Made by a program: the position numbers and the translations under genes. A model generated the notes under the pieces. It was not told the origin of the DNA. It worked only from the letters and a program-made list of their open reading frames with translations, and did not search any database. This document shows, piece by piece, positions 1,868 through 32,331 of a stretch of DNA of 64,000 bases (positions within the stretch are counted from its first letter, which is position 1; every line of letters begins with the position of its first letter). The DNA is from a virus: positions 32,001 to 96,000 of the IMG/VR virus record IMGVR_UViG_3300027869_000006, one strand, 5' to 3'.

Positions 1868-4800
1868 ATGGTAGTTACCACAACAATTGGCTCAACCCCC
1901 GTCTCCTTGCTGAATGGTACGCCGCCAAGTCTGCATGATACGCTTGACCAACGCTCAACAATCCGTCTTGTGGTGATTGACAAAACAGGAACACTCCATT
2001 TTCAACCCATGCAACCCGTGACTATCACCGATAGTTACGCTGGTCGCCTGTTCACGGGCTACGTCAACGATGCGACGGAAACGAATCTCTCCCCGCAAAC
2101 CGCGATCACACATACTGTGACGTGTTTTGACCAACACTGGCTGGCCGATAAGCGCGTGGCATCCGGTGCCTCTGACGACGATGCCATGAGCAACCAGTAC
2201 GCTGGTGATAACGTCGTCTACTTGCTTGCGAACTACCTGGAAGCTGAGGGTGTCACGGCCTCGTATGCACAACGGCGCGAGAGTACGCTCACCGATTTTC
2301 AGGCAGGGACACTGACGAATGTGGTGGCGACCGACAACGTTGGTGATGGGGACCTGGAACTCTCGACGCAGGGGACGCCCGCAAGTACGACCTTTGGCAG
2401 TGGGTTCCGAGACTTTGTGACGGGCGCGACGCTCTCGAGTGTGGATTGCGCGGCAAGTGGGCAGCCCTTCTCGCAACTCAACCTGAAGGCATATAGCGCA
2501 CTCAAGTATAGCGGGACCAATGGCTCATCAAGCGCGGGCAATCTCGGCAATACCTACGCCTATTGGGAAGTGTGCAACGACGGCGCCACCGTGATTGCCT
2601 CGGGCGATACACTGCAATACGACGTGTGGATTTCCTCAACCAGTCCACTCATTCAAGGGGCCGTCGATTTCACCACCACCGATGGTATTGGCCTACGTGA
2701 CTTCCCCAATAACACGCAGGCAATGCATGACCAGAACTTTATCAAAGCGCATCCTGGCACCGATCTCTCCGGCTATGCCAACGATCAGTGGTATCACCGC
2801 ACGATTGATTTGACGCTCATGGCAGGCAAAACTATCTCGCACGTTGATCTCGCCTTTGAGGGCGATACCGGCGGCACGTACCTCGCCTATTTTCGCAACA
2901 TCTTCGTGTACAACAACAGTGGCGGCGTCAAGAAGACGGTCTTCGATAGCTCGCAACACGCCTATTCACCGCAACAACAGAGCATCAGTGGCAACTACCT
3001 GACGACTGATAATGGCTATACCAACCTCTCAGTGATGTTTGTGACGGTCTATGACCAAGTGGGGACCTGGATCAGTCCGGCTCTGAGTATTGATGCCGCC
3101 AAACTGGTGCGGGCAAGCCTGCTCAGTTGGACAACGAGCATGGCGGCGACCACAACTGCCGCGAGTCTTGCCAGTGGCATGGCTTCCCCCAATGTGCCTG
3201 CCGGTACTACGCTCACCTTGTACACGAGCATCGACAATAAGGCGACGTGGCAGGCAGCAACCTTTGAGTCTCCCATTCCAAATCTCTCTGGTGGCTTCAA
3301 CGTGACCAATAGGAGTATGTACGTCAAGGCGGTATTCGCCATCGCCAACCCAAGTCCTGAACTCTCACCGATCCTCACCGCTTTGCAAGCGACCGTTTCG
3401 AGTTCCTGGTCGCAAGTGAAAACCGATAGCATCACGACCGCAGGAGTCCAGGGAGATTTCAACACCGGCAACTATACGAATACCGCCTGGTATAGTGACC
3501 CGGGTGGGGCAAATACGAACCTCTTTCCATCGACTGATGTGGGTGTCACGCTCTCCGGCTATTGGACGGGATGGGATCGGCCTGATGGCACGATTGGCAA
3601 TGTGACGATCTATACGGCCCTTGCCACCACGAATGTCTATACGTGGTATCGGCAACTCAACATCTATGCGATATCCGGCGGGGATATCCGCGTGAAGCTC
3701 AACAATGCACCGAACCTGCAAAACTTTACGGCACAACTGAGTGTGGCTGTGCGTGAAGATGTGAGTCGGGAAAACGGCGTGGGTTTCGTGTATCGCACCA
3801 CGAACTGGGCCAATGCCAACGAGACGTGGGCCTATACGGTGATGCTGGAATTTAACGCGGGGATGGGTTCCACCTTTTCAGCCACGCCCTTTGTGCATGT
3901 GCAACTTGGACGGGCGAATAATGCCGGGACGACCACCGGGACCTATGTCAGTATTGCCGATGTGCTCCTCCCCTTTGTACCCAAAATCAATACCGTCTAT
4001 ACACTCAAAGTCGTCGTGAATGGGAACTCCCATAAGGTCTACGTCGATGACGTGCTGTGGATCAACGCGACCGACAGCACCTGGACAGCCTCCGGCGGAT
4101 TTGGCATTCGCTACTACAACGCCAGTGGGAATGGCTATACCGGCATCTATGACAACTTTGGGGTCGTGCAAAGTCTGTCCGGCCAATGGGATAACGGCTC
4201 AGGTATCGTCCTTGGCTCAGGCATTGGCACGGTCGGCAATTCCCTGGTTGCCTGGGATGCGGATGTACCGTCGGGTGGGACGCTCTCCGCGCTCACCAGC
4301 GTGGATGGTGGGGCTACCTGGCAATCGGCGACCAGTGGCAGCGCCATCCCCAACCTGGCACCAGGGACCAATACGGTGGGGAAATCCGTGCGGATCAAGT
4401 TCCTCCTTGGAGCCAACGCGCCCATTGTGACCCCCATTCTGAAGGGATGGACCATCTGGCTCACCAAACAAACCAACGCAGCAGGGAGCAGAGTCTCCCT
4501 TGGCCTTGACCTCTCAGCCGCCGGGCGTGCCGGGTCCACGCTCGTCAATTGGAATGGGGCAACCCCGCCTGGAACGAACATCTTCATCGATAGTGCGCCT
4601 GATAACACCACCTGGACGAACCTTGGCAGTGGCGCACAAGGCAACGCCCAAATCGCAGGCATACAGAGCCAACTCGACCCGATAGATGATACCTTTGACA
4701 GCAATACGAGTGGCTTCTATGTCTCGACCTTCCAGACCAATGGGACCACCGCCACCTGGGACTTCTCGACGGCGGTGCCTGCCACCTCATATATCAGTGC

Positions 4801-24125: not shown

Positions 24126-25205
24126 CTAGGCGCGTCCTGCTACAGTAGGCACTTTGACGGGTGCCCGAGAGATATTGATGGCAGCATTGATGTCAGCGTT
24201 CATCGACATGCCGCACTTGACACAACAGAAGGAGACTTGACTCTTGCGGTTCTCTTTCGCACAGTGCCCACAAGCAGAGCACGTTCGAGACGTATTGCGG
24301 GGGTCTACCGTGTGTAACGACACACCAGCAAGAGCAGCCTTATACGAGAGGAATTGACGAAGTTAAGCAAAGGCCCAGGATGTAAAGCGATTGCGCTGAG
24401 AACGTCTAACCGTGCTATCGGTGCGTTTCCGAATGTGCCTGAGTTCTTCAATCGCTATTCCTTGTTTGTTGGCCTTTGCTTTCGCAATGATCCGTTTGGA
24501 GATCACATGATTGGTATTGCGCTTGAACCTGGCTTCTTTGCCAGAGAGCTTCTTGAGATGCCGTTTGGCGGATTTCGTGCCGCGCTTTTGCAAACGTTGA
24601 CGCAAGGCGTGCATACGTGTACGCACCTTCTCAACCTGCTCACCGCTAAAGGTGTCCCCGTCACTGTCGGTCGCCAGGTTGACGATGCCAAGATCGATGC
24701 CAAGCGTCTCAGTCACTTCATCGGGCGTAGGTTCTGGAACATCAAGCGTGACAGCCAGGTAGAAGGTACCATCACGCCAAATCAAATCGGCCTGTCCTTT
24801 GATCTTGTCCATACGGGCTTGCTGATAGCCACCAATGCGGAAGGGCACAAGTACCCGTCCAGTGGTTGTCAAGAGGGAAACGGTAGTGAGTCCTTTGAAG
24901 GACATCACGCGGGGATCATAGACAATGGCACCTCTGGCATCAAACGTTGGCATGATACTCTTGTCGCGCTTGTAGGCTTCGGTCGCTTTGCTAATACAGC
25001 GGATGGCGAGTTGAGCAGGCAGATTGTACCACTTGCGCAAATAGCCATAGACCAGCTTTTGCAGTGCAAACTTATTGGCACTCTTCTCCAGAAAGGCGAT
25101 TTGCGCCACATAGTTTGCCCCTGCATTGAAGCAATCCATCGTCAACAACAAGGCTTTGTATTGTTCTTCAGTTGGGGCAAGCTTCAAGAGCATCGTTTGT
25201 TTCAT
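24126..25205 (-). pseudogene. tnpB: TnpB interrupted by one in-frame stop at 24363-24365
   Basis: RuvC-I LGIDLG and RuvC-II IAIEEL, then WAFA*LRQFLSYKA continuing in frame to the zinc finger (CSACG/CVKCG) and NADINAA. Confidence 0.9.
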
Positions 25206-25211
25206 AGACAT

Positions 25212-25382: not shown

Positions 25383-26426
25383 ATGCCTGATTACCCCCTG
25401 GCTGAGGAACACTTTGTACCTCGATCATATATGTTCGATAGCAATGCATGCAAAGTTTTGGTAATTCACAAGACGGGTGGAGACGCAACCCCTGCGGCGA
25501 TCCTTCAAACGTTTCTCACGAACCCGGATCGACCATCGGTCCATTATGGCGTAGGCACAGATGGGAGTATCTGGCAGTACGTCCCTGAAGCACTCGGCGC
25601 GGGCGGGAACTGTTGCGTGGAACCGGGCTATGACCCATTCTGGGCACAATTTAACCCGATGGCTGTTGGGTCATCTTCTGGAACCAACCTGAATACAGTC
25701 ACACTCTCTCTTGAGCATTGCGATGCGGCACTTGACAATAGTACGCCACTTACCCCAACTCAGCAAGATGCGAGCTTCAAACTCATTGCCTACCTGGTCG
25801 CCAAGTATAGCATCCCCCTTTCACACATCAAGGGCCACAATACAATTGACCCACAGAGTCGCGCCCGTTGCCCAGGTAACTACCCCTGGCCCGCGTTATT
25901 TGCCTATCTACAAAATGGAGGGAATATGGCAGGAGTACCAATCGGCTGGCAATACGACCAGGCGACGCAAACATTGACGGACCCCAACGGTGGGAAGGTA
26001 GGTCCACCCTATAGCGCACACGTGTTAGCAAGTAACTGGGACCCGCATAACTTTCTTTGGATCGCCGCCTACCATACCAATCAGCTGGAAGCAGCGAACC
26101 CTGGCCTGGGTGCGGGGACACAAATCATCTTCTATGAGTCCATGCTGTGCGTGCCTGATAATCCCCCAGACCCGAACCTTGCGAACCTGAAGGGAAAAGT
26201 GGTCACGGAATATGTCGGGATTGAAGCGGCCTATGCCCGTAGTCAGTGGACCCGCTATTCGGGAATAGCCCAACAGTTTCAAACACAATTCACAGAGGAG
26301 CAGACAAAAAATACGGCCCTGACTGCCCAAGTCGCACAACTGGAAGCACAGATCGCCGCGCTCTCCCAACCCACGGCGGATGCACAGGCGATTGTGCAGA
26401 TCAAGCAGATTGTGGCGGCGCTATGA
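25383..26426 (+). CDS. Endolysin, N-acetylmuramoyl-L-alanine amidase (Amidase_2) with C-terminal coiled coil
   Basis: VIHKT, SVHY, SLEH, IKGH, CPG zinc-amidase motifs; RBS AAGGAG. Confidence 0.85.
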   Translation: MPDYPLAEEHFVPRSYMFDSNACKVLVIHKTGGDATPAAILQTFLTNPDRPSVHYGVGTDGSIWQYVPEALGAGGNCCVEPGYDPFWAQFNPMAVGSSSGTNLNTVTLSLEHCDAALDNSTPLTPTQQDASFKLIAYLVAKYSIPLSHIKGHNTIDPQSRARCPGNYPWPALFAYLQNGGNMAGVPIGWQYDQATQTLTDPNGGKVGPPYSAHVLASNWDPHNFLWIAAYHTNQLEAANPGLGAGTQIIFYESMLCVPDNPPDPNLANLKGKVVTEYVGIEAAYARSQWTRYSGIAQQFQTQFTEEQTKNTALTAQVAQLEAQIAALSQPTADAQAIVQIKQIVAAL

Positions 26427-26560: not shown

Positions 26561-27275
26561 AGAGTGCAAACTGATTGCATACCAACTCTATGATGGTGAT
26601 CTCCCCATGCAAATCGTTCCGGCACCGCGCAAACGGCAGTGGATGGATCAGACGCCACAGAGTTTTGCGAACCGTTGCCTCCCGCTCTTACTGGGAAATG
26701 CGAGCGGCTGGTGGCTCTTGAACACGCACGAGATACAGGTGACCTGGAACGGCGGCACTGATCTCTCCGCGCTCACCATCGCGGGTCGGGGTAGTTCGGA
26801 GACCGGCTATGCACTGAGCCATTTTGGTAACGGTCTCTTAACTTGGAATATTCCCCTGCTCTTTTCCACGCCCCCTGGATATAATTTGCTGGTACGTGGC
26901 CCTGCAAACTGGCCCAAAGACGGGGCATACGCACTGGACGGGCTTGTGGAGACAGATCACGCTGTGGCGACATGGACCATGAACTGGAAGATGACGCGGC
27001 CTGGCCTGACCGTCACCTTTGCCAAGGGCGAACCGATAGCACAAATCGTGCCACAGAAGCGTGGAGAACTAGAGACATTCACCCCGCAAGTACGGAACAT
27101 CAGAGAGGCACCAGAGTTACAAGCTGCATACAATGCGTGGGCATCTAGTCGCTCAACATTCAATATGGAACTGAAGAGACCAGGGTCAGAGGCAGTGAAG
27201 CGGCAATGGCAAAAGGATTACTTCCAAGCATCCCATCAAACAAAGGTCGCATTGAAGGAGTTCACAACTCCATGA
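26532..27275 (+). CDS. DUF6065 family protein
   Basis: PAPRKRQWMD...FANRCLPL...GW...LLFSTPPGYNL.VRGPAN.PKDGA..LDGLVETD...TMNWKMTRPG. Confidence 0.75.
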   Translation: MEVTQHVSNEECKLIAYQLYDGDLPMQIVPAPRKRQWMDQTPQSFANRCLPLLLGNASGWWLLNTHEIQVTWNGGTDLSALTIAGRGSSETGYALSHFGNGLLTWNIPLLFSTPPGYNLLVRGPANWPKDGAYALDGLVETDHAVATWTMNWKMTRPGLTVTFAKGEPIAQIVPQKRGELETFTPQVRNIREAPELQAAYNAWASSRSTFNMELKRPGSEAVKRQWQKDYFQASHQTKVALKEFTTP

Positions 27276-27311
27276 CATCTCTCTCTCATTTCTTAGACAG
27301 TTGGAGGACAT

Positions 27312-27896
27312 ATGGCAACGACACCGACAAAAACCCCGAAGCAGCAAGCCTCACTCGCAGGCGTCTGGCAGGGCATTGAGGCACCAATCATCGGTATCCT
27401 CCTCTCCCTTGCCGTAGCTATTCAGCAGTATTTTAGTACCCATAGTGCCCCAAATTGGGGAGAACTGGGAATGATCCTGTTCCCGACCGTCATTGTTGGT
27501 ATTGTGCAAGCACTCAAGCAGTTCAATGCAACACTCGGGCAGGCATCAGTTCCCATCGTCACCGTCCCGCCGCCCGCACCGGTTGTCTCACCATCCGACA
27601 TTGCGGCAGCGATACGACAGCAGGTACCAGGACTGGTCATACAACAGCCACCGGCACCACCGTCGTTCATTGCGCCGTCAGTGCCACCAGGAGGATACGA
27701 TACGACGCTGGTCCAACCCCTCTCATTCGCCCCTCTGACCACGCCTGCCCAGCCACAACAACCGTACACGTGGTCACAGCCAGAACCATCCCCGACACTC
27801 ACGACACCTGCGCCAGTAATTACGCCGGTATTGTCACTGCCAAGTACGTTTCCGCAAACACTCGATTTACCAATCGTACGACCACAAATTGAGTAA
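27312..27896 (+). CDS. Holin-like membrane protein with Pro-rich C-terminal tail
   Basis: Two N-terminal TM segments, long Pro/Thr-rich tail; RBS GGAGG; lysis region. Confidence 0.55.
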   Translation: MATTPTKTPKQQASLAGVWQGIEAPIIGILLSLAVAIQQYFSTHSAPNWGELGMILFPTVIVGIVQALKQFNATLGQASVPIVTVPPPAPVVSPSDIAAAIRQQVPGLVIQQPPAPPSFIAPSVPPGGYDTTLVQPLSFAPLTTPAQPQQPYTWSQPEPSPTLTTPAPVITPVLSLPSTFPQTLDLPIVRPQIE

Positions 27897-27897
27897 T

Positions 27898-27935
27898 AAT
27901 AAAGGGTACTACATCTGCATGTAGTACCCTTTATT
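27898..27935. terminator. Bidirectional terminator-like hairpin
   Basis: Perfect 17-bp inverted repeat AATAAAGGGTACTACAT-CTGC-ATGTAGTACCCTTTATT between convergent units. Confidence 0.8.
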
Positions 27936-27936
27936 C

Positions 27937-28129
27937 ATCCCATACCATACCGCATCCCGCCGGACTGCACCCCACCCAGCCTTGCCAGACATTACCCCGC
28001 ATCGCCACGCCTTACCCCACCGAACTACACCTTACCAACCAGACCATGCCGAACCCGACCGGACCACGCTATACCGTACCTTACCTTACTGAACCCAGCC
28101 AAGCCGGACCTCACCATACCTACCGTGCC
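27937..28129 (-). repeat. (GGY-NN) pentamer array 1, 39 units; putative guide RNA locus
   Basis: Minus strand GGC AC GGT A GGT AT GGT GA GGT CC GGC TT...; 31/39 triplets are exact GGY and the rest are one mismatch away; two 4-nt phase slips; starts 1 nt after a stop codon and ends at the terminator. Confidence 0.9.
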
Positions 28130-28130
28130 A

Positions 28131-28349
28131 TTAAGCGTATCGTGTTTGGTCTGTCTCCCAGTTCACTAAACGTACAGGTGTCACATCTAAGTCTGTGATA
28201 GGAATGCCATACTTTTCTTCAGCTAAACTCAGTCCTTCCTGAGCATCACTAGCGGTTATCTCACCCACTATAGGCACCTGCTGCTTTCTTAGCTTGGCAT
28301 GCACGGTAGTGTCATGTCCCTTATACCAAACATCGAACCTATGCAACAT
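28131..28349 (-). CDS. Small hypothetical protein (72 aa) translationally coupled to the Cas7-like gene
   Basis: TAATG stop/start overlap at 28347-28351; MLHRFDVWYKGHD... Confidence 0.65.
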   Translation of the reverse strand: MLHRFDVWYKGHDTTVHAKLRKQQVPIVGEITASDAQEGLSLAEEKYGIPITDLDVTPVRLVNWETDQTRYA

Positions 28350-28897
28350 TACTTCACCTTTTCCCATGACACAAGAGCAAATCTCCCATACGGCCCTTTC
28401 TTTGCAGGACGGAAGTCACCAATGCCAACAAGTCGCCCTGCATCGGTGAGTATGTCACGGATAAGACGTTCACCAACTAGATCGGTATCAATCTGAACAT
28501 CAAACTCCATATTCCACTCATCGAACATTGGCCTGTGGCGTAGAATACGCCCCCCAGTCGCTTTAATGACAACAGCCCGTGAGTCCACATGCCATTCCCC
28601 TACCAGAGGAATTTCAAATGGGCTAACATAGACCCCTGCCGCTACATCAGTTGTCGCAGCCCTCCGTCCAATTTTGTGTCGTGATGCTGCTGCAATCATT
28701 GACTGCCGAATATTCTCAGCCGGATAGAATGGGCTATGTTCATTGGTATACAGGCGACTTGCCGCATCTTCATGAGGAGCCGGATATTCTTTCCGACCAT
28801 GTGTTCCTGAAGTTGCTTCCTCTGCCGCTGCCTCATGAAAACGATTCACGATGAGCGGCGTCAAACTCGTAATGTTGACCTTGTACGTTACAATCAT
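28349..28897 (-). CDS. Solo RAMP/Cas7-like protein (Vipr-like), 182 aa
   Basis: RAMP hallmarks: first strand YKVNITSLTPL, YPAENIRQSM helix, WNMEFDVQID strand, C-terminal Gly-rich loop AGRLVGIGDFRPAKKGPYGRF; RBS AAAGGA before ATG 28897. Confidence 0.8.
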   Translation of the reverse strand: MIVTYKVNITSLTPLIVNRFHEAAAEEATSGTHGRKEYPAPHEDAASRLYTNEHSPFYPAENIRQSMIAAASRHKIGRRAATTDVAAGVYVSPFEIPLVGEWHVDSRAVVIKATGGRILRHRPMFDEWNMEFDVQIDTDLVGERLIRDILTDAGRLVGIGDFRPAKKGPYGRFALVSWEKVK

Positions 28898-28926
28898 GTG
28901 TGTTATCCTTTCTGTGTGAGTAACTT

Positions 28927-28962
28927 GTGTGGTGCCCTGCCCCAGTGGTAGGGCTACCACGC
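28927..28962. promoter_or_regulatory. GC-rich hairpin between array 2 and the Cas7-like gene
   Basis: GTGTGGT-GCCCTGCC-CCAGT-GGTAGGGC-T-ACCACGC imperfect inverted repeat at the 3' end of array 2 (minus strand). Confidence 0.55.
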
Positions 28963-28977
28963 GAAACAAAATGAACA

Positions 28978-29370
28978 AAACCATACCAGACCGGACCTCG
29001 CCAAACCCGGCCTTGCCAGACCGGGCCTTGCCAGACCGGGCCAAACCCGACTACACTAGACCTCATCATGCCACACCTCCCATACCATACCCATCCTTAC
29101 CGAACTGCGCCAGACCGCAACGTACCAGACCGCGGCAAGCCGGGCCGGACCCAACCTAACCTATTCCTCAGCAAACCATGCTATACCCCACCTGACCGTA
29201 GCACTCCTTCCAAACCGCACCATACCCAACCAAGCAGGACCCCGCGTCACCGCACCTGATCGGGCCATACCCCACCTGACCAAGCCGTGCCTACCTTGCC
29301 GCACCAAACCTCACCTCACTCAGTCTTGCCTCGCTGGACCTAGTCGCACCGAACCTGACCTTGCCGTGCC
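28978..29370 (-). repeat. (GGY-NN) pentamer array 2, 79 units; putative guide RNA locus
   Basis: 58/79 triplets are exact GGY and the rest are one mismatch away; phase slips at 29078-81, 29162-67, 29208-11, 29292-95. Confidence 0.9.
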
Positions 29371-30005
29371 ATAATCCTGCTATAGGCCAATTTCACGCAG
29401 AACTCAACGTCATTCCATACCTGGGAGCCAGTGAAGCGAAGAACGTACCAGCCTTGATCTTCAATCGTATGCTGTCGCATATAGTCTCTATTTCGGTCTC
29501 TCTTGTGACTATGGAACGCTTGCCCATCAAGTTCGATTACTATCTTTGCTTCAACATGGGCAAAGTCTACACGATACTTACTAATCCGATGCTGTCGCTC
29601 AAGAGGGATATCTGGATACAGCAGGCACCATGCTTCATAAAAGGCTTCCTCGATGGGACTTCCATTCTTGACGGATTGCTGAATTTCCCGTAAACGATTA
29701 CGAGCCTCATTAAGTGCAGCCTCACGTTGTTGATTAGCAAGTCGCAAGGCTTCTACTCGCTCTGCTTCTAGTGCTTGACGACGTTCTAGGGCCTGCTCTC
29801 GCTTCTCCCGAATGGTTGCTACTTCAATCTCTCTCTGGACAGATTGCTGATGCTCATTCGCACGACGCTTCAACTCCCTAGCTTCCTGAATCATACTAGC
29901 TTTCTCTGCCGCAAGTTGACGTTGTATGGCAAGTTCATGCTCTCTGTCAGCTTGAAGTTTTCGTTGTTGTTCTTGATAGTCGTTGAATGCTTGCCAGTCC
30001 ATCAT
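29340..30005 (-). CDS. Coiled-coil + DUF559/Vsr-like (PD-D/ExK) endonuclease
   Basis: SPIEEAFY...ERQHRISKYRVDF...IVIELDGQAFH...RNRDY.RQ..IEDQGWYVLRFTGSQV. Confidence 0.85.
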   Translation of the reverse strand: MMDWQAFNDYQEQQRKLQADREHELAIQRQLAAEKASMIQEARELKRRANEHQQSVQREIEVATIREKREQALERRQALEAERVEALRLANQQREAALNEARNRLREIQQSVKNGSPIEEAFYEAWCLLYPDIPLERQHRISKYRVDFAHVEAKIVIELDGQAFHSHKRDRNRDYMRQHTIEDQGWYVLRFTGSQVWNDVEFCVKLAYSRIMARQGQVRCD

Positions 30006-30007
30006 GC

Positions 30008-30181
30008 TTATTGTTCTCGTTTTGTAGGCTTTTGCTGTTTCTGTTGTACTCGTTCTAATTCTTGGTTCGCTAAACGGTCAAGAAGACTCACGATACTCTC
30101 CCCTGTGATGGCATGAAGCATACGCAAGGTGGTAAGTGTCCTTGTCCAGATGCGAGTTGTTTTGTAGTCATCGGTAGCCAT
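30008..30181 (-). CDS. Small RHH-like DNA-binding protein (57 aa, absent from the ORF track)
   Basis: Hand translation MATDDYKTTRIWTRTLTTLRMLHAITGESIVSLLDRLANQELERVQQKQQKPTKREQ; strand-helix-G.S-helix pattern. Confidence 0.6.
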   Translation of the reverse strand: MATDDYKTTRIWTRTLTTLRMLHAITGESIVSLLDRLANQELERVQQKQQKPTKREQ

Positions 30182-30187
30182 GAAGTT

Positions 30188-30216
30188 ATTTTACTACAAA
30201 CAAGTGTTCTTGTCAA
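30188..30216 (-). promoter_or_regulatory. sigma70 promoter of the array/Cas7-like cassette (leaderless)
   Basis: TTGACA-17nt-TAAAAT-6nt-ATG(30181). Confidence 0.75.
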
Positions 30217-30276
30217 GAGGAAAAGAAGACGCCCTTGACACAAGCATATACTAAGAGCAGAAGGGGGAATTTTTCT

Positions 30277-30837
30277 TTGGAACGCGGGTCCGTTATTCTT
30301 TTTGAGAAGGATGGCAGTCTCTTCAATTGGCTCATCACGAAAGCAACTCATGGTCCCTATGTCCATGTGGAAATTTGCCTGGGCGAGGAACGCCTGATCG
30401 GTGCTCACGGTAACCGTCGCGGCATCTATGAGCGTGATTGGGCCGATGCACCTTCGTTAGTGACGGAGGTCTCTCTCTCCCCCTATGCCGATGAAGAGCA
30501 CATCGAGCAGGCCCTTACCTGGGCGCAAGAGCAACAGGGGCATCCCTATGGATGGTGGGATATCGCCAGTCAGTCCATCAAGTTCTTGTGGCCAACGACA
30601 CCGCTCCGGTTCAGCAAGTCAGACGCATGGGGGTGTGCAGACTATGTGACCCGCTATCTGATACAAGCAGGGGTGGCCTTGCCAGAAGACTTCATGGACC
30701 CTGGGAAAAACTCGCCCAACGATATTGGACGGTTGTTCCATCTCGTTCCACAACGGCCACAACGCATCAGAAAACGGGAGAGAGAGTTGAGGAAAGGTCA
30801 TGCCATTGCCGCATTTGCCGCCTCCAGACGAGGATGA
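30277..30837 (+). CDS. Permuted papain-like (YaeF/YiiX, NlpC/P60 superfamily) amidase
   Basis: G.VILF...THGPYVHVEI (His first)...GHPYGW...WGCADYV (Cys later); TTG start 7 nt after AAGGGGGAA. Confidence 0.7.
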   Translation: MERGSVILFEKDGSLFNWLITKATHGPYVHVEICLGEERLIGAHGNRRGIYERDWADAPSLVTEVSLSPYADEEHIEQALTWAQEQQGHPYGWWDIASQSIKFLWPTTPLRFSKSDAWGCADYVTRYLIQAGVALPEDFMDPGKNSPNDIGRLFHLVPQRPQRIRKRERELRKGHAIAAFAASRRG

Positions 30838-31036
30838 CATCTATCTCACATCGGCGGAACTCGAGCAATTACTGGCCACGACCAAAGAAGTGGAGCAATT
30901 GCAAGAGGGTAATCCGACCGTCACGCAGGCACTTGCCGCCGATAGACAGCGCCGCAAACTCTTACGTCGTCTGCTCCACGGTGTTGCCAGGCAATGGCGT
31001 CACACGCTATCAAGTACCGAGCCAGGAAAGGACTAA
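30800..31036 (+). CDS. Hypothetical protein
   Basis: ORF with RBS, in an operon context. Confidence 0.5.
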   Translation: MPLPHLPPPDEDDIYLTSAELEQLLATTKEVEQLQEGNPTVTQALAADRQRRKLLRRLLHGVARQWRHTLSSTEPGKD

Positions 31037-31795: not shown

Positions 31796-32233
31796 TTAGA
31801 CTCCTTCCTGAGCAGGTGCTACTTCATCATTCAGTAGTTCAATACCTGCTTGTACGTATGCCTCTATCCAAGCAACTTCACGCCATCTAGGATTGACACC
31901 TTCATCGACAACTTCTAACGTTAACATCCAAGGAAGCATATGGGCATCTAAAATGGCTTGTATCCTAGCATGCTTGCGTTGATTATTATCAGAGAGCAAG
32001 AGGTGTTGCTTAAAACGAAGATAGAGGTTATTCGTCAATCCGATGTAGAAAACTTGATGGTCTCTTGGGTCAATGATCCCATAAATCACAGTGACATTTT
32101 CTTGGTAATATGCCCCTGTATTACCAGTAGATGCTATGCGACTATTGACACGATCCGATTTGTGACCATCATAGAAGGAAAGTTTTTTAATGGGGTGCTT
32201 GCCATCCTGGGCATGAGGTGATAGAGTTGTCAC
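31796..32233 (-). CDS. GIY-YIG-like nuclease domain protein
   Basis: VIYGIIDPRD..VFYIGLT..L..RF.QH...REVAWI...LLN; start uncertain. Confidence 0.7.
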   Translation of the reverse strand: MTTLSPHAQDGKHPIKKLSFYDGHKSDRVNSRIASTGNTGAYYQENVTVIYGIIDPRDHQVFYIGLTNNLYLRFKQHLLLSDNNQRKHARIQAILDAHMLPWMLTLEVVDEGVNPRWREVAWIEAYVQAGIELLNDEVAPAQEGV

Positions 32234-32331
32234 GATGCATCTCCGATCTTTAGTCAGATGTATCAACCGTCTTGAAGGCGTACTCTCGCCTTCAAGACAT
32301 AACAATTTACCCTCTCATTCTATCACATCGA

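Follow-up and report, generated by a model that had tools for sequence, protein, structure and literature searches.

Why would a phage carry guide RNAs that point at the two genes bordering their own cassette? The question is raised by a locus in the IMG/VR virus record IMGVR_UViG_3300027869_000006, of which positions 32,001 to 96,000 were analysed (64,000 nucleotides, here called the window; coordinates are those of the window unless a locus is named) as part of a genome of 109,768 bp. A minus-strand unit at 27898-30216 sits in this window between two plus-strand genes. The cassette is a nuclease-bearing VIPR (Viral Interference Programmable Repeat) system that has entered the lysis region of a phage from soil. 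Two of its guides, D1 and D2, are shown at the sequence level to spell variant alleles of the two bordering genes. An earlier note on this DNA had proposed RNA-guided homing, a process by which the cassette would be copied into genomes lacking it. The reading that is considered probable here asks for less: the guides would be directed against variant alleles of the flanking genes and would spare the resident ones, making up a linked attack and immunity in the manner of a poison-antidote pair.

A VIPR system consists of a RAMP protein called Vipr, of vrRNAs built from GGY/NN repeats, and of accessory vap genes (10.64898/2026.04.26.720920). In the VIPR code, the NN dinucleotide pairs with two target bases and the next target base, usually the codon wobble position, is skipped (10.64898/2026.04.26.720920). 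"Staggered" arrays, in which the vrRNAs overlap by 1 nucleotide, have already been described; the criterion for a natural target was a match at 80% of the guide positions, and the sets of that preprint hold no self-target of at least 80% (10.64898/2026.04.26.720920). Silencing was demonstrated for type II VIPR (VIPR preprints), and nuclease-bearing types have been linked to target destruction (10.64898/2026.04.26.720920). The family itself is thus already known (2026 preprints); the arrangement that is unreported is that of paired guides against both flanks together with a phage DUF559 nuclease.

Guides related to both flanking genes

The minus strand of the cassette contains repeats of the form GGY-NN (YNNGG), arranged in register-consistent segments that share one G (a 1-nucleotide overlap). 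There are about 70 units in the upstream array (29340-28978, segments U1-U5) and 39 in the downstream array (28120-27937, about 190 nucleotides, segments D1 and D2). Guide D1 (28036..28120, minus strand, 17 units) is related through its units 1-16 to the start of the right flanking gene, at 30274..30321 on the plus strand, a site comprising the TTG start at 30277 and 14 codons. Guide D2 (27937..28036, minus strand, 20 units) is related through units 1-13 to the last codons of the left flanking gene, at 27825..27863 on the plus strand (residues PVLSLPSTFPQTL). The last seven units of D2, ending in GGTAT GGTAT GGGAT, are unrelated to the left gene and probably form a 3' tail. That the guides map to both flanks had been claimed by the earlier note, and both matches were reproduced to the base, with sites 35-73 bp to the left and 58-105 bp to the right of the cassette. 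The inverted orientation of the cassette relative to both neighbours was likewise found as described.

When read with the skip-1 code, D2 agrees with 27825-27863 at 17/26 nucleotides and 7/13 dinucleotides, and D1 with 30274-30321 at 20/32 nucleotides and 6/16 dinucleotides. The skipped base is the codon wobble position at both sites. At the nucleotide level, no site in the 109,768-bp genome surpasses these two, which are best or tied for best and lead the runners-up by one position, and nucleotide matches of 70-77% are reached by chance within 16-kb loci. Such figures are what would be expected of a coincidence, that is, of chance best matches of short degenerate patterns that were noticed because the reader looked nearby. 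The codon-level test, in which the guide dinucleotides were taken as codon positions 1-2, makes this explanation very improbable. Eleven of 13 residues are compatible with D2, and of the other positions in the genome, some 219,000 in all, the best reaches 7-8; the compatibility of 800 random guides never exceeded 9, and the Poisson-binomial E value of D2 is 3.7e-5 per genome scan. BLOSUM62-max scores were 58 for D1 and 57 for D2, with 39 for the next best in the genome. The null genome-wide maxima of 300 random guides were 37.8 +/- 3.6 and 35.5 +/- 3.7 and never rose above 50, which places the observed scores 5-6 standard deviations above them. An ungapped-local version of the test gave a genome-wide p of about 0.005 for D1 and for D2. 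Moreover, both sites lie next to the cassette, in a stretch amounting to 0.2% of the genome, and the phenomenon recurs in independent loci, as described below. The relation to the flanks is regarded as confirmed because the codon-level scores are far beyond chance; the nucleotide matches alone are not.

Resident counterparts exist for D1 and D2 only, namely the two flanks, at the ends facing the cassette. For U1-U5, no credible resident counterpart was obtained in the codon-level scan of the whole genome, nor does the genome hold any self-target of at least 80% spanning more than 10 units. A match of U2 to 4347-4396 was rejected, being out of frame and with a score driven by Trp, His and Cys. 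A match of U4 to the Amidase_2 endolysin gene at 25998-26048 was not accepted (score 44, genome-wide p 0.21). Taken in the RNA sense, U4 shares the reading frame of this gene; P-P, L, A, S, N and W are retained, and one Leu and one Ser codon have changed family.

Recoding and the probable sparing of resident alleles

The resident copies of the two flanks match 62-65% of the guide positions, which is under the 80% natural-target criterion, and the mismatches are scattered, no matching run exceeding three units. Partial matches next to the own locus could serve autoregulation, in which the ribonucleoprotein (RNP) would bind the resident flanks weakly and tune their expression, as CreA/CreR and tracr-L do. 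D1 does lie over the beginning of the right gene, where roadblocks repress well, and in the related locus L017 the beginning of an HNH-like gene downstream of the array is matched by one of the locus's own guides at 21/26 positions (81%). In the window, however, the low and scattered matching, the kept amino acids with changed NN dinucleotides, which point to selection against pairing, and the lack of self-targets of at least 80% in the preprint's sets all argue against autoregulation, and it is judged improbable.

The differences between guide and resident gene have a particular character. There are four Ser/Leu family switches at the left site and three at the right site, where the other differences are conservative. 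At nine Ser, Leu and Arg codons, the guide reading and the resident gene specify the same residue; 7/9 of these are in the other codon family, and three of the seven are TCN/AGY serine switches. A peak of Ser/Leu/Arg recoding at the target sites had been predicted, and two comparisons give different answers: switching at 7/9 codons is well above the 24% in the 72%-identical L011/L009 allele pair (p 0.001), but it does not exceed the 5.4 expected from an independent choice of codon family under the codon usage of the genome (p 0.21). Because it is not above independent family choice, the switching is no proof of selection; it fits selection against pairing.

The probable reading, linked attack and immunity, would work as follows. 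Filaments of Vipr and vrRNA would bind the variant flank alleles of related phages that infect the same cell, and the resident genome would be left alone. The rival would then be either silenced or cut by the DUF559 nuclease. Adjacency would keep each guide with its resistant allele, and recombination could then not yield a self-targeting genome. A guide against a gene of its own phage is safe only if it is inherited with a non-matching allele, so that adjacency is a sufficient explanation without homing.

Neighbour-related guides in other VIPR loci

The codon-level scan was applied to 140 array segments from 55 non-redundant loci. Of the 15 self-relations with the best codon-level scores, ten are at most 350 bp from an array, as against 13/102 unremarkable ones (Fisher p 2e-5). 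This test replaced a nucleotide-level proximity test, which gave 8 relations within 150 bp where 1.8 were expected and which rests on weak matches. The strongest relation was seen in L087 (z 9.7), with a site in an SNase-like gene beside vipr. It was followed by L017 (z 7.9), in which the HNH-like gene mentioned above starts 15 bp past the array (L017:8784-8918). The last guide of this locus is above the published natural-target threshold and could represent true self-targeting or autoregulation of an accessory nuclease, as judged from the match. In L011 (z 6.6) a guide is related to the own vipr gene and in L030 (z 5.9) to the end of the upstream gene; weaker self-relations were obtained for L012, L024, L036 and L027.

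The locus L011 allows alleles to be compared. One of its guides (L011:4713-4982) matches the serine-recombinase allele of L009, L027 and L028 at 27/30 positions and its own allele at 23/32, and its last 5-6 units do not pair. Another guide (L011:3373-3427) matches the opening codons of vipr in L019, L033 and L034 at 19/22 and its own vipr at 18/22. The guide in L011 thus fits the rival allele and not the resident one. Since the match to the L009/L027/L028 allele reaches 27/30, the skip-1 rule is valid in this clade.

Neighbour-related guides are present in VIPR loci without a DUF559 gene. Conversely, no flank-related guides were found in the nuclease-bearing loci L001 and L002, where z was at most 1.9.

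Searches for rival alleles and natural targets

Several results weigh against linked attack and immunity. No cassette-free or susceptible allele was present in any collection searched, and the rival allele is to that extent hypothetical. The two flank genes were not met in any relative, the records of L001-L005 included, and the search of sequencing runs listed no RNA dataset containing the stretch. In L011/L009, the sole natural pair in which both alleles are at hand, divergence at the target equals the background of the gene. The sparing of resident alleles is itself deduced from mismatches. Finally, no natural target for any of the seven guides was found in IMG/VR, in the metagenomes of the Joint Genome Institute (JGI) or in 401 Chloroflexota genomes.

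The last of these results was obtained with searches of various stringencies. An exact seed of units 1-9 gave 0 matches in IMG/VR for D1 and 3 for D2, none of which extended and the number being that expected by chance; the corresponding seeds of U2, U4 and U5 gave 0 matches each. In the JGI metagenomes, ten units of D1 gave 0 matches and ten units of D2 one match (L101), without extension. Thirteen units of D2 with at most 3 mismatches were not found in the 401 Chloroflexota genomes, and no match of at least 21/24 to a guide of the window occurred in 80 VIPR loci and the own genome. A 9-unit exact seed would also miss the validated 27/30 target, which makes the blanks from seed searches weak. 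Among the sequencing runs, only the probable source soil metagenome contains the stretch, in the form of contigs, and these showed neither a joint across the cassette nor variant letters.

The nuclease and possible homing

The position of the two guide-related sites, one on either side of the insertion point, and the presence of a nuclease in the same apparent operon are the observations from which homing had been proposed. According to this explanation, the two filaments would mark the cassette-free allele during a mixed infection, the DUF559 nuclease would cut it, and repair would copy the cassette together with its resistant flanks. Were the rival broken to the left and to the right of the insertion point, mending with the cassette-carrying genome as template would copy the cassette and thereby amount to homing. 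Such spread by RNA-guided cleavage is a possibility, albeit a doubtful one. The flank-related guides, their poor match to the resident genes and the nuclease in the apparent operon stood up to the analysis; the empty allele on which the proposal depends was not found.

The linkage of the nuclease to the array, as had been expected, is not confined to the window: a DUF559 nuclease gene adjoins the array directly on its upstream side here as well as in L001 and L002, the homolog in L002 being full length with 43% identity. The related cassettes of L001 and L002 sit in unrelated contexts, in phages without these flank genes, which counts in favour of homing. The tie between nuclease-bearing VIPR types and target destruction (10.64898/2026.04.26.720920) also favours homing. 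If the nuclease is recruited, homing would result from the same arrangement of sites.

Base composition has been used as a further indication. The GC content at third codon positions (GC3) is 0.40-0.42 in the cassette genes, compared with 0.59 in the long open reading frames (ORFs) of the genome and 0.52-0.58 in the flanks; the cassette is compositionally foreign. In the left gene, the last 25 codons (27816-27890) have a GC3 of 0.32, as against 0.44-0.64 in the rest of the gene. This low end, near the 0.41 of the cassette, might be a co-converted tract such as homing would leave, but the dip is one window out of 15.

Homing is opposed by the lack of an empty allele or susceptible relative in the collections searched, by the loci that have the nuclease without flank-related guides and by those with flank-related guides and no DUF559 gene, and by the Ser/Leu switching, which independent family choice would also produce. 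Because neighbour guides occur without the nuclease, and L001 and L002 have the nuclease and no such guides, flank-pointing does not need homing. Tight linkage explains flank-pointing equally well, and linked attack and immunity is therefore the safer reading. A natural RNA-guided homing or cleave-and-rescue drive, with two guides against unrecoded flank alleles and a recruited DUF559 nuclease, is taken to be unlikely for this locus.

Organization of the cassette and its place in the VIPR family

The right end of the cassette is formed by a promoter-like site, TTGACA-17-TAAAAT (30188..30216, minus strand), which has 11/12 consensus positions and precedes orfA. From the ORF list, orfA (30008..30181, minus strand) encodes 57 amino acids, and its stop lies 2 nucleotides ahead of the start of the nuclease gene. 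Searches of Pfam, PHROG and NCBIfam gave no significant family match for its product, which by eye is possibly a small DNA-binding protein of the ribbon-helix-helix type. The accessory nuclease (29340..30005, minus strand, 221 amino acids) has a coiled-coil-like N-terminal half and a DUF559/Vsr-like PD-(D/E)xK domain. Its C-terminal half matches PF04480 (DUF559) with an E value of 1.3e-15 and PF18741 with 3.9e-12; the N-terminal half looks like a coiled coil on inspection. A comparison of the nuclease with PDB sequences gave zero matches. Next follows the upstream staggered vrRNA array (28978..29340, minus strand), in which the register parse recognizes U1-U5 over about 360 nucleotides of GGY-NN pentamers. 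The vipr gene (28349..28897, minus strand) encodes a Cas7/RAMP-like protein of 182 amino acids that matches phrog_4652 (E 7e-17) and has no Pfam match. Its end is overlapped by orfB (28131..28367, minus strand, 78 amino acids, from the ORF list), for which no family match was obtained in Pfam, PHROG or NCBIfam. The guides D1 and D2 come last, and the left end of the cassette is a perfect 17-bp hairpin at 27898..27935 (inverted repeat I6, 100% complementary), probably a bidirectional terminator. The promoter-like site, orfA, the nuclease gene, the U guides, vipr, orfB, the D guides and the hairpin probably constitute one operon.

The assignment to the VIPR family is based on the protein as well as on the arrays. 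An AlphaFold2 model of Vipr with a predicted local distance difference test (pLDDT) score of 87 has as its top PDB matches Csm3/Cas7 proteins of types III-A and VII (E 4e-8, probability 1.00), and the protein is predicted from this model to have a Cas7-like fold. Using tblastn, residues 111-175 of Vipr (the G-loop region) were found to match SUSP2 and other Felixounaviruses (E 3e-6). Felixounaviruses, including SUSP2, are the clade of the published VIPR model phage (VIPR preprints). As a VIPR complex, the Vipr-vrRNA ribonucleoprotein would be expected to bind double-stranded DNA.

A protein search retrieved 120 Vipr homologs, and relatives were collected from 233 IMG/VR loci, 80 of which were fetched and analysed. 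Most of the 80 have GGY-NN arrays adjacent to vipr and in its orientation, and hardly any were seen on the opposite strand. Many Vipr relatives (L003, L004, L025 and L038-L052) have no GGY-NN array by the parser used, among them L003 and L004 at 63% identity. These relatives may use the alternative repeat forms NNNGG and YNNNG that are named in the preprint. No GenBank phage was matched by blastn with the 7-kb region, no close relative was found in IMG/VR with the single proteins Vipr and the right-gene product, and nothing in NCBIfam corresponded to Vipr, the flank genes or the small ORFs.

Flanking genes and the lysis region

The left flanking gene (27312..27896, plus strand) encodes a protein of 194 amino acids with two hydrophobic helices and a Pro-rich tail, which appears holin-like by inspection; it has no homolog among 5.8e9 proteins. 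The right flanking gene (30277..30837, plus strand, 186 amino acids from the TTG start) has four distant homologs only, with 40-48% identity, and zero matches to PDB sequences. Its AlphaFold2 model (pLDDT 76) has 3kw0 (E 9e-4) and YiiX 2if6 as best PDB matches, and with moderate confidence the product is predicted to be a permuted NlpC/P60-like cysteine peptidase. The term "amidase", used for this gene before, is therefore right in a loose sense only. The placement of the cassette in a lysis region agrees with the holin-like left gene and with an Amidase_2 endolysin gene two genes upstream.

An 18-nucleotide direct repeat, ATGACATCT(C/A)TCTC(T/A)CAT, occurs at 27272-27289 and 30834-30851, at two stop/start junctions, and its copies bracket the left gene, the cassette and the right gene. 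The copies are identical at 16/18 positions, which is about chance level for the region, and CT-rich motifs recur nearby.

Two further genes near the cassette were recognized by inspection. A TnpB-like (IS200/IS605 OrfB) gene is located about 3 kb away at 24126-25211 on the minus strand, in two ORFs, 24363-25211 and 24126-24323, of which the latter encodes the Zn-finger end, perhaps through a frameshift. With this gene, a second family of RNA-guided nucleases would be present near the VIPR cassette. A GIY-YIG-like ORF lies about 1.6 kb from the cassette (31796-32305, minus strand, GC3 0.36), and a homolog with 54% identity is present in L001 (L001:13522-13920), about 5 kb from the VIPR cassette of that locus. 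The ORF has the look of a free-standing homing-endonuclease gene that travels with these phages.

Comparison with known systems

The system shares with those of the VIPR preprints a small Cas7-like protein and staggered GGY-NN pentamer arrays, and its guides would follow the skip-1 code on the wobble position. It is likewise phage-borne and would be aimed at related mobile elements, with self-matches below non-self matches, and some VIPR types also have accessory nucleases. Solo vrRNAs aimed at VIPR loci of relatives were reported to have lower self-match scores, and by a term search of the same source, homing and paired flank guides are unmentioned (10.64898/2026.10.15.759431). The accessory nucleases are uncharacterised in the VIPR literature, of which bioRxiv 10.64898/2026.04.26.720927 is a further source. 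The predicted nucleases of the preprints belong to types III and V and are enriched in host defence islands, whereas here a DUF559 nuclease is encoded by a phage. The preprints describe guides whose targets are satellites, regulators of prophages, and rivals' vipr and vrRNA loci; the guides here concern two non-VIPR flank genes.

Transposon retention and homing guided by omega-RNA is reportedly a property of TnpB/IscB in IS200/IS605 elements, in work said to be that of Meers et al. from 2023. There, too, the RNA guide specifies the sequence flanking the element, so that an unoccupied site is cleaved and then mended with the occupied copy as template. The TnpB/IscB guide is transcribed from the flank and the nuclease binds the RNA, in contrast to the recoded pentamer arrays, Cas7-like filament and separate nuclease of the VIPR cassette. 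Free-standing homing endonucleases of T-even phages, the Seg and Mob proteins, are responsible for marker exclusion and intronless homing. In these systems as well, a nuclease gene lies between conserved phage genes, the rival allele is cut nearby, and repair spreads the gene with resistant flanks; recognition is by protein there and by RNA here. The synthetic cleave-and-rescue drives ClvR and TARE, engineered with Cas9 in animals, use guides against a gene together with a tightly linked recoded copy that escapes them; the counterpart here would be of natural origin, in a phage, and its recoded copy would lie at the native locus. Finally, CreTA/CreR and tracr-L employ crRNA-like RNAs that partially match self, retain an unbroken seed and work through binding to self. 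Incomplete matches next to the own locus are common to them and the present guides, the mismatches of the latter being scattered.

Significance

In the 2026 work, VIPR silences its targets and is put forward as a possible CRISPR ancestor. The locus described here adds a concrete case in which both guide-decoded targets are exactly known, the resident non-matching versions serve as built-in controls, and a nuclease is part of the apparent operon. Escape from a wobble-skipping code would run via conservative substitutions and changes of codon family at Ser, Leu and Arg. Whether or not homing occurs, independent VIPR loci repeatedly contain guides in linkage with resistant alleles of their own, and this linkage would explain how phages can carry guides against genes that they have in common with their rivals. 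If cutting and copying do occur, the cassette would be a natural RNA-guided phage gene drive and a second route of selfish spread besides that of TnpB/IscB. Neighbour-aimed guides would then be a general way in which VIPR cassettes hold and spread their position.

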